A stretch of DNA of 64,000 bases from a virus, in the IMG/VR virus record IMGVR_UViG_3300042987_000557, positions 6,502 to 70,501 of that record. One strand, 5' to 3'. Of the stretch, positions 31,788 through 33,447 are shown piece after piece. Each line of letters starts with the position of its first letter. The first letter of the stretch is position 1. The notes beneath the pieces are model-generated. The model searched no databases and was not told where the DNA came from. It was given only the letters and a program-made list of their open reading frames with translations. Both the position numbers and the translations under genes were made by a program.

Positions 31788-32555
31788 ATGGCTACAAAGA
31801 AAGTAACAGAAGATACGATTCAAATCGTTGAGATGGAAACCCAAACGGTTACGTTCCATGTACTAGGAACTACACCGATGATCTGCAATCGTATGCCTGA
31901 GAAGGCATGGCAGCAACTGCTTCTTCCTTCCGGTCGCAAGACTGCTGCTGAGAAAGCAGGATCAATGAAGCACGATCCTTTGACTGAGTATCGCTCATCG
32001 CCATACCGTATGCCGCAAGGTGATCATGCAACTGAGTTGTCTGTGTTAGCTACGCAGTTTAAAGGTGCGCTACGCAATGCTGCACTGGATATGCCTGGAG
32101 CTAAGAAGTCACAGATTGGTCGCCTGACAACGGTTGAGAATGAACGTCTTGAGTTGTTCGGTGTTCCTAAGATCTTCTCAAGTATCACTCGGTCAGCAGA
32201 CATCAACAAGACCCCTGATGTACGCACTCGCGCCATCGTACCGAAGTGGGCATGTAAGGTTGACATCACTTATGTGCGTCCGGTTTTGAACCATACAGTT
32301 ATCTCTAACCTTTTCGCTACAGCAGGTATAACGATGGGCGTAGGTGATTGGAGACCTGAGAAAGGTTCAGGTAACTACGGTCGTTGGAAGATTGTCGATG
32401 CTGATGATTCTGACTTCTTAGAAATAATTAAGACAGGTGGCAAGGCAGCGCAACTTGAAGCACTGGAGAACCCAGAGGCTTATGACGATGACACTGAAGA
32501 GTTGCTATCGTGGTTCAACACAGAGACCAAACGTCGTGGTTTGAAAGTAGCTTAA
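31788..32555 (+). CDS. Stand-alone Cas7/RAMP-like protein, candidate RNA-guided effector
   Basis: RAMP/RRM-like order of motifs: first strand FHVLGTTPMICN, helix ATQFKGALRNAA, thumb region ending VRTRA..PKW....ITY, Gly-rich loop AG...GVGDWRPEKGSGNYGRWKI. Confidence 0.75.
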   Translation: MATKKVTEDTIQIVEMETQTVTFHVLGTTPMICNRMPEKAWQQLLLPSGRKTAAEKAGSMKHDPLTEYRSSPYRMPQGDHATELSVLATQFKGALRNAALDMPGAKKSQIGRLTTVENERLELFGVPKIFSSITRSADINKTPDVRTRAIVPKWACKVDITYVRPVLNHTVISNLFATAGITMGVGDWRPEKGSGNYGRWKIVDADDSDFLEIIKTGGKAAQLEALENPEAYDDDTEELLSWFNTETKRRGLKVA

Positions 32556-32565
32556 GGAGATAAAC

Positions 32566-33030
32566 ATGGATAGAGCCGCAATAGCTAAAAGATTAGAGGA
32601 GATTGCGGCCCTCCACGGAGGGTCGCTTACACCAGACATCGTAGTGGCAGATGCTAAGAACCCATCAAGTCCTTTACATAGCTACTTTGACTGGAGTGTT
32701 GAGAGCGCAGCACATAAGCACTGGATTGATACCGCACGTAATCTAATTGCTTCTGTGCGCGTGATTGTAACCACAGAGAAAGTTGTTATTAAAGCACCTT
32801 TCTATCTACGTGATCCAAGCAAAAAAGGTAACGAGCAAGGCTACACCACACTTACCAAAGTACGTAGTAATAAAGATCTTTCAAGGGAAGTTATCAATAA
32901 TGAAGTTGCACTCATTGTTGGTGCGCTAAGAAGAGCAAAGAACGTAGCACAAGCCCTTGATATGGTGGATGAGATGGAAGCACTGCTTGAACAAGTCTTA
33001 GTCCTACGCAACAAGCTAGAGAAGGTTTAG
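32566..33030 (+). CDS. Conserved partner protein between the RAMP-like gene and the array
   Basis: G.LTP..VV..A....SPLH.YFDW....AA......AR.LI..V motif; AAGGAG RBS; stop codon abuts the array. Confidence 0.75.
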   Translation: MDRAAIAKRLEEIAALHGGSLTPDIVVADAKNPSSPLHSYFDWSVESAAHKHWIDTARNLIASVRVIVTTEKVVIKAPFYLRDPSKKGNEQGYTTLTKVRSNKDLSREVINNEVALIVGALRRAKNVAQALDMVDEMEALLEQVLVLRNKLEKV

Positions 33031-33447
33031 GCAGGCCGGGTACGGTAAGGTCAGGCTTGGTGCGGTGGGGTTCGGCAGGCAAGGCGCGGCTAGATTAAGC
33101 AAGGTGGGGTATGGCGACGTGAGGTAGGGCAGGCTCGGTTCGGTAGGTTGCCTTTGGGTATGGTTCGGCGCGGTTCGTTTTGGCAGGCAAGGATTGATCC
33201 GGCATGGACAGGCGCGGCAACGCGGGGTGCGGTGAGGTATGGTATGGCAGGCGTGGTGAGGTCGGGTGAGGTGAGGTCGGGTCGGGTTTGTTGTGGCAGG
33301 CTAGGTGAGGTCGGGTTAGTTGTTATATGTAAGGTCTTATCAGGCAGGCTAGGTAAGGTTCGGTTCGGTTTTATTCAGTGCGGTTTGTTAGGGCAGGCAC
33401 GGTGGCGTTAGGTAATACAAGGTGTGATGGGTTTTGATGAGGCAGGT
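33030..33447 (+). ncRNA. GGY-NN pentamer array of 8 units delimited by GGCAGGY; candidate guide-RNA array
   Basis: GGCAGGY at 33030, 33074, 33128, 33182, 33246, 33295, 33343, 33392, 33441. Spacings 44, 54, 54, 64, 49, 48, 49, 49, i.e. 4+5n except one. The repeat is certain; RNA function is inferred. Confidence 0.8.

Follow-up and report, generated by a model that had tools for sequence, protein, structure and literature searches.

VIPR systems, proposed in the VIPR preprints as the viral ancestor of Class 1 CRISPR, use guides of about 9–16 GGY/NN units with variable NN, and find their targets by pairing with a 1-nt skip that is aligned with the wobble base, on both strands and with no PAM. 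As these preprints present it, the mechanistic dissection concerns type II only; 99 VIPR-like clusters have been reported (10.64898/2026.10.21.760802). For the type II system of SUSP1, which carries four guides with a conserved structured 3′ pseudoknot tail, an anti-satellite role is described as established (10.64898/2026.10.15.759431). A staggered layout, in which a phage encodes vipr, one vap and GGY/NN guides overlapping by 1 nt, appears in the fig. S18 legend of 10.64898/2026.04.26.720920, whose search for natural targets dealt with types II, III and V, and the text and legends of the VIPR preprints report no sRNA-seq, targets, polarity or 5′ bias for the staggered form. Here, we analysed a 64,000-nt window of a 70,501-base virus record and found a locus that, judged from its sequence, is a VIPR system of this staggered form. 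Because VIPR was published in 2026 with the staggered layout included (10.64898/2026.04.26.720920), the locus is not of a new kind; what we add is a set of decoded natural targets for the staggered form, as predicted from guide matches.

The window encodes terminase, portal, head, tail-fibre, lysis and PolA replication genes, with no integrase match among the 51 ORFs scanned, and the VIPR locus lies within the replication module. On the plus strand, a 255-aa ORF (vipr, 31788–32555) is followed after a 10-nt gap by a 154-aa ORF (vap, 32566–33030), and the guide array begins with the final base of the vap stop codon, confirming the three tightly coupled elements noted in the first-pass annotation. 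A minimal vipr–vap operon in a virus is the arrangement expected of VIPR, whereas Class 1 CRISPR-Cas loci have a cas operon and a repeat-spacer array; as the same annotation had stated, both are absent here, since PADLOC found no cas1, cas2, cas5 or cas6 and no cas operon among 55 window ORFs, and a repeat scan of the window found no CRISPR array. The only cas-named PADLOC matches were a weak Cas4-like one, corresponding to a replication exonuclease, and a weak, partial and probably spurious Cas12c match (E 5e-6) in a 220-aa minus-strand ORF at 18326–18985. Directly upstream of vipr stand two winged-helix genes (30627–31055 and 31221–31652; Pfam TrmB and HTH_IclR-like), which are possible regulators, and directly downstream of the locus is a hypervariable small-gene region (34350–34950), where contigs from RNA libraries show many joints and loose ends. 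These contigs, from two runs, span all 30 bins of the region, silent and coding DNA alike, so that RNA is not separable from DNA in them. Elsewhere, the window encodes a DarB-like antirestriction/ejection protein of 2851 aa (41966–50521, minus strand) and, within a 941-aa ORF, a coding low-complexity tract made of a 9/12-bp tandem repeat (55730–55983).

The 255-aa protein contains GTTPMICN, FKGALRNAA and GVGDWRPEKGSGNYGRW, in the order first read as a RAMP signature, and structure prediction agrees with the RAMP/Cas7-like fold then suggested. In an AlphaFold2 model built from 84 homologues (pLDDT 84.5), Vipr is a single-RRM protein with the RAMP architecture of RRM core, thumb and G-loop, here predicted outside a CRISPR locus. 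Among the Foldseek matches listed, all were CRISPR RAMP complexes, as were the top 24 of VIA-align; the leading ones were Csm3, Cmr and Cas7-11, which share this core, thumb and G-loop (Z 8–9.8), the best being Csm3 (Z 9.8, rmsd 3.6, 150 aligned). No Vipr structure was among the PDB matches, the PDB copy running to 8 April 2026 and pre-dating the VIPR preprints. Although the folds are alike, Class 1 CRISPR RAMPs pair contiguously, whereas VIPR pairing is gapped.

Kinship with VIPR, which the first-pass annotation had suggested, is borne out by family, profile and residues. Vipr matches PHROG 4652 (E 4.7e-13), as does SUSP1 agp039 (1.4e-96), which we identified by sequence as SUSP1 Vipr because its H17, K33, K82, R138, D177, W178 and R179 match the residues given in the structure paper. 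The window Vipr profile finds SUSP1 Vipr (E=5.6e-9) over the C-terminal part, the N-terminal half giving no significant alignment. R148, D187, W188 and R189 of the window protein align to SUSP1 R138, D177, W178 and R179, so that four guide-gripping residues are kept, with R148, D187 and R189 invariant across the 84 homologues. The window system thus shares with SUSP1 type II, as the latter is presented in 10.64898/2026.04.26.720927, the PHROG family, the GVGDWRP G-loop and guide-binding residues, and differs in the length of Vipr (255 aa with a C-terminal helical extension versus 195 aa). Altogether, 1897 homologous proteins were found. More distantly, at 24–30% identity, homologues (H1–H33) were seen in the records of 33 cultured phages, 25 from Mycobacterium, seven from Gordonia and one from Pseudomonas, all tractable hosts. 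In one close relative (L014:10001-10765), vipr is frameshifted (two tblastn frames) with vap and a 10-guide array intact; the frameshift may be an artefact, because the contig appears chimeric or error-prone.

The accessory protein belongs to another family than its SUSP1 counterpart (PHROG 15946 versus PHROG 5926 for Vap1), and its profile did not match SUSP1 Vap1 (E=0.08). A vap homologue is nevertheless present in 36 of the 37 related loci that have downstream DNA. The Vap profile gave no significant Pfam or PDB match and matched no nuclease family, an Atlas search returned only unnamed viral clusters, and a single-sequence model was unusable (pLDDT 47); H38, R58 and R123 are its invariant polar residues.

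The array runs from the final G of the vap TAG stop (33030) to about 33447 on the plus strand, and is non-coding and G-rich. Its best in-phase score in our period scan is nine GGY per 10 units, while none of 1000 dinucleotide shuffles exceeded 7 and the rest of the 70.5-kb contig, on both strands, never exceeded 4; 53 of its 76 units are canonical GGY. The period and place of what had been described as a 418-bp 5-periodic array therefore stand, but it is not a single run: nine GGCAGG junctions, spaced by 44, 54, 54, 64, 49, 48, 49 and 49 nt, each slip the phase by a single base, except across guide 6, where the shift is of two. The junctions delimit eight guides of 8–12 units each, which abut at GGCA/G with no intervening or 3′ tail, unlike the tailed guides of SUSP1, and which share 1 nt with their neighbours, each guide beginning where its predecessor ends. 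The earlier proposal that each 5-nt unit is a programmable guide thus gives way to one in which the guide is a run of 8–12 units between junctions.

Such arrays recur in related loci. We found 38 related IMG/VR loci, 37 with downstream DNA, of which 30 pass a strict array scan; because each of the 23 distant loci showed periodic blocks in a relaxed scan, and the junction word was in most cases the same, we count arrays in 37 of 37, in agreement with the expectation that homologues would carry GGY-NN arrays differing in NN. The window and its 14 closest relatives have 8–19 segments each (177 in total, 125 distinct), in comparison with four guides in SUSP1, and after dropping four segments above 70 nt as missed junctions we retained 121 guides in 65 families. 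Across these 15 arrays, whole guides are common to several strains, change their order, and are gained or lost, and contigs from a single run carry joints inside the array. Within guide families, NN positions vary less than the scaffold (29/804 versus 77/1195 changes between strains over 42 spanning-tree pairs, p=0.006), and 37 of 1168 units have 4 nt. Among the distant loci, an extra GGY/NN block lies upstream of vipr, as in SUSP1, at L029:9779-9932, L036:9823-9877 and L037:416-545, the L029 and L037 arrays appear low in NN diversity, and the staggered array at L035:11375-13826 is very long, with 23 GGCAGGC junctions in about 2.4 kb.

How such an array would yield guides can be read in two ways. 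We favour cutting of the transcript at the GGCA/G junctions, which would release guides of 45–65 nt; the fig. S18 legend calls staggered arrays individual processed vrRNAs (10.64898/2026.04.26.720920), and the junction word is strongly conserved in distant relatives, as expected of a cleavage signal. Rather unlikely, in our estimate, is that the array stays unprocessed and Vipr loads the long transcript, with the one-base slips delimiting filaments so that one RNA would serve as several targeting modules. This reading draws on the lack of a tail, the folding score of the array (z=0.28), the absence of a credible Rfam match or of any ribozyme or stable fold, and the fact that no nuclease was identified; moreover, guides with a 4-nt unit, guide 6 among them, keep their NN register and still match 18/18 or 19/20, and because such internal units are tolerated, phase slips need not be cut sites.

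We then read each guide as NN pairs with a 1-nt skip, two bases on and one off. Guide 3 (33132–33185, 10 units) gave 10 exact 20-base matches in metagenomes, four of which (L062, L067, L068 and L070, each 20/20) fall in one HGGxSTG-domain gene family (NF041373) of a satellite-like island, antisense and with the wobble base skipped; the target genes are 81–87% identical in DNA, and the site codons read KDAEMQALED. The other six rows lie in unrelated genes and were treated as chance, three viral rows found with an 18-base part of this guide were set aside because the match did not extend, and 10 related phage records gave no match with up to three mismatches. Guide 5 (33250–33298, nine units), which had not been used in the target search, matches the DUF5906 helicase gene of the same L070 island in sense orientation at 18/18, and likewise at 18/18 that of a second island (L096, in genome G397), the two helicases being only 42% identical. 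Guide 4 (33186–33249, 12 units) reads, in sense, the PolA motif NFPMQANGAEM of int-AlpA-SSB-PolA islands: it matches at 19/24 in one such island, exposed by the flanking DNA of 20 integrase-bearing places, and at 23/24 in another (G517:C88), found by protein search. A viral scan with 20 of its 24 bases returned 10 rows, every one this PolA motif, and the four unsearched bases all match in five rows and at three positions in the other five, giving 24/24 and 23/24, respectively.

The assignment of guide 6 (33299–33346, nine units, one of 4 nt) is weaker. It matches, in sense, an AAA ATPase gene (YDRYVIKL) inside a serine-recombinase element, at 18/18 in G546 and 17/18 in G444 and G472, that is, in three of 139 same-genus genomes at 0–1 mismatch, and 120 of 120 viral rows lie in one AAA ATPase gene family, which we take to be Sak4/AAA_24. 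Because its total count (5) does not surpass the 6 of the reversed control, and none of the other guides was found to support this element, the assignment is provisional. Guide 1 (33034–33077, eight units), searched in island genes only, reached at best 12/16, and no target was found for guide 2 (33078–33131, 10 units), guide 7 (33347–33395, nine units, common to eight of the 14 relatives) or guide 8 (33396–33444, nine units, common to six of the 14). We set aside guide 2 matches in seven of 139 genomes, all at three mismatches, guide 7 matches in 12 viral rows and 32 of 139 genomes, which are scattered over housekeeping genes, and guide 8 matches in three viral rows and nine of 139 genomes, below its control.

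Pooling the 121 guides of the clade gives the same picture. On four island contigs, 11 guides match at 90% or more with a skip of 1, and none reaches 80% with a skip of 0 or 2; on 31 integrase-bearing loci of the G397 genus, nine guides match at 85% or more, against 0, 1 and 0.8 in controls. On 76 island genes (65 kb), 34 guides from 17 of the 65 families match at 85% or more at skip 1, against none at skip 0, one at skip 2, and 1, 2 and 1 in shuffles, a gene set built mostly from islands, with one bacterial family searched. Because the families of guides 3, 4 and 6 helped to pick their own target genes, 14 of these 17 families are free of circularity; 48 families, and four of the eight window guides, have no match at 85% or more on this set. 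The third (wobble) codon base is the one skipped in 16 of the 17 families. A codon-prefix test on proteins was also passed, by five guides on 150 integrases, eight on 120 helicases and six on 120 HGGxSTG proteins, where shuffles averaged at most 0.25. The assigned genes are of integrase, Prim-Pol, DUF5906 helicase, PolA, HGGxSTG and AAA types, and the sites are conserved coding motifs, among them the Walker A region of the helicase and motifs from the catalytic domain of the integrase. No PAM was seen in the target flanks, and the junction AG, matched at two of 19 sites, is not read. In the 1-nt skip, wobble alignment, use of both strands and absence of a PAM, the clade resembles VIPR at large, and with SUSP1 it shares anti-satellite targets that include a recombinase (10.64898/2026.10.15.759431).

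The islands themselves suggest, by gene content, satellite-like elements of the P4-like integrase/AlpA/primase kind. L070, the longest of the four contigs, carries a weak AlpA-like gene, Prim-Pol, the DUF5906 helicase, HGGxSTG and cargo, and the GTDB genome G397, which belongs to the same family as a MAG titled Rhodoferax sp., holds an integrated related island (integrase, AlpA, Prim-Pol, DUF5906 and HGGxSTG) that adjoins housekeeping genes. Close islands were not found in IMG/VR, and GTDB gave only distant ones, 42–50% relatives of the best-matching island. No capsid gene was among the listed ORFs of L070, L096, L282, L284, L290 and L321, and a literature search returned no paper on 'HGGxSTG'. 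PICMI-like and P4-like satellites, as described in PMC10803314, are likewise small islands in the chromosome that encode integrase, AlpA and primase; the PICMI-like ones occur in Vibrionaceae, whereas the target islands come from a Burkholderiales genus and have variable replication modules (Prim-Pol with DUF5906, SSB with PolA, and others) together with the HGGxSTG gene. They differ also from the SUSP1 targets, which in the preprint are F5 satellites with tail genes. Since one bacterial family was searched, a Burkholderiales host is only a hint. One contig (L290, G489:C113) has two integrase/HGGxSTG islands in tandem, with the inner integrase matched by clade guides at two sites (19/20 and 17/18). 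In another (L284:6337-7962, G511:C6), a Cas9-like ORF of 542 aa with a PF18470 match lies near the contig end, after an island that bears integrase, primase-like and HGGxSTG genes. A 600-bp non-coding gap between helicase and HGGxSTG (L070:3250-3847) and short repeats beyond orf100 in L068 (L067 near 1859-2124 of the L068 alignment) may represent an origin or packaging signals and, as such, would bear on the polarity idea.

The orientation of the matches depends on the gene. Guides against integrase (6/6 families) and HGGxSTG (2/2) are antisense, so that the RNA pairs with the coding strand, whereas all eight families against replication genes are sense (DUF5906, three; PolA, three; Prim-Pol, one; AAA gene, one); the split is significant (Fisher p=1.6e-4), with the caveat that the gene grouping is post hoc and families may share ancestry. 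The protein test gave the identical split with no exception, from largely the same guides, and NN composition was rejected as the cause because it favours no strand by gene class. As 57 guides of distant relatives gave no matches above control on the same target sets, the polarity is without replication outside the clade. Matches are also tighter toward the guide 5′ end, with target mismatches at 4/190 bases in units 1–5 versus 18/182 later (p=0.002) and strain differences at 8/420 versus 21/384 (p=0.008), the cut at unit 5 being chosen post hoc; in contrast, SUSP1 filaments are described as resolved from the 3′ pseudoknot. These patterns raise the tentative possibility that tail-less staggered VIPRs are a mechanistically distinct branch, marked by GGCA/G cutting, possibly with Vap, by 5′ nucleation, tolerance of 4-nt and non-GGY units, selection of orientation and Cas1-free shuffling of guides. 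Guides in one orientation would then keep integrase and HGGxSTG genes from being transcribed, those in the other would halt a motor (replisome or packaging) that traverses the replication genes in reverse, and whole-guide shuffling would give the population an adaptive memory, independent of Cas1, that works against many island families.

By analogy with type II VIPR, Vipr would polymerise with one subunit per 5-nt unit, gripping the scaffold and presenting the NN pairs, which would read double-stranded DNA two bases on and one off; filament formation, an R-loop triplex and steric silencing would follow the type II model. We propose steric silencing because no nuclease was identified, and bound filaments may block island expression, excision or replication during lytic infection. 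It is improbable, in our judgement, that island DNA is instead cut or destroyed with the help of Vap, or that the system acts on mRNA. The invariant H38, R58 and R123 of Vap would suit cutting, even though its profile matched no nuclease family, while an action on mRNA could invoke the integrase and HGGxSTG guides, which are complementary to the message, and the binding of ssRNA by Vipr in vitro reported in 10.64898/2026.04.26.720927. The replication-gene guides, however, cannot pair with mRNA because they are sense in eight of eight families, and one 18/18 site starts directly upstream of an island ORF, both of which count against it.

What the guides are aimed at bears equally on the interpretation. 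That VIPR here serves mainly against competing phages and prophages in superinfection warfare, with island matches a minority, seems to us very improbable, although guide 6, present in 13 of the 14 relatives, matches an AAA gene widespread in prophage-like contigs, the guide 4 motif occurs in viral contigs too, most guide families are without an assigned target, and P. fulva-clade guides are described as targeting prophages (10.64898/2026.04.26.720920). Against this, 16 of the 17 assigned families fall on island genes (in a set that is mostly island-derived), and viral sequences gave no comparable signal: in 375 kb made up of relatives and the phage itself, three of 121 guides matched at 85% or more where shuffles gave 4.2, no guide matched 120 Vipr homologues, and 80 AAA-bearing viral loci showed no excess beyond guide 6. 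Within the 70.5-kb contig, no window guide beat its own shuffles, giving no sign of self-targeting. A G-rich microsatellite beside an orphan RAMP gene, with target matches arising by chance, is refuted, since even though exact 18-base gapped patterns do match unrelated genes (guides 7 and 8, and six of the 10 rows of guide 3), independent guides converge on the same elements in a skip-specific, wobble-phased manner with controls near zero.

We therefore consider it highly probable that the window carries a phage-borne VIPR operon, consisting of vipr, vap and a staggered array, that is used against the parasitic integrated elements of the host, with each strain keeping a rotating stock of 8–19 guides that may cover many island lineages. 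For the staggered, tail-less form, the clade supplies 121 natural variants of guides and an opponent whose class can be named, which makes it possible to test how a multi-guide array is processed without tails or ribozymes, whether the orientation of binding has an effect, and where new guides come from in the absence of Cas1-Cas2. An array this compact and multiplexed, with guides of about 50 nt and one small protein, is also of interest for engineering. For an uncultured phage of aquatic bacteria, the guides themselves predict the links between phage, host and satellite.
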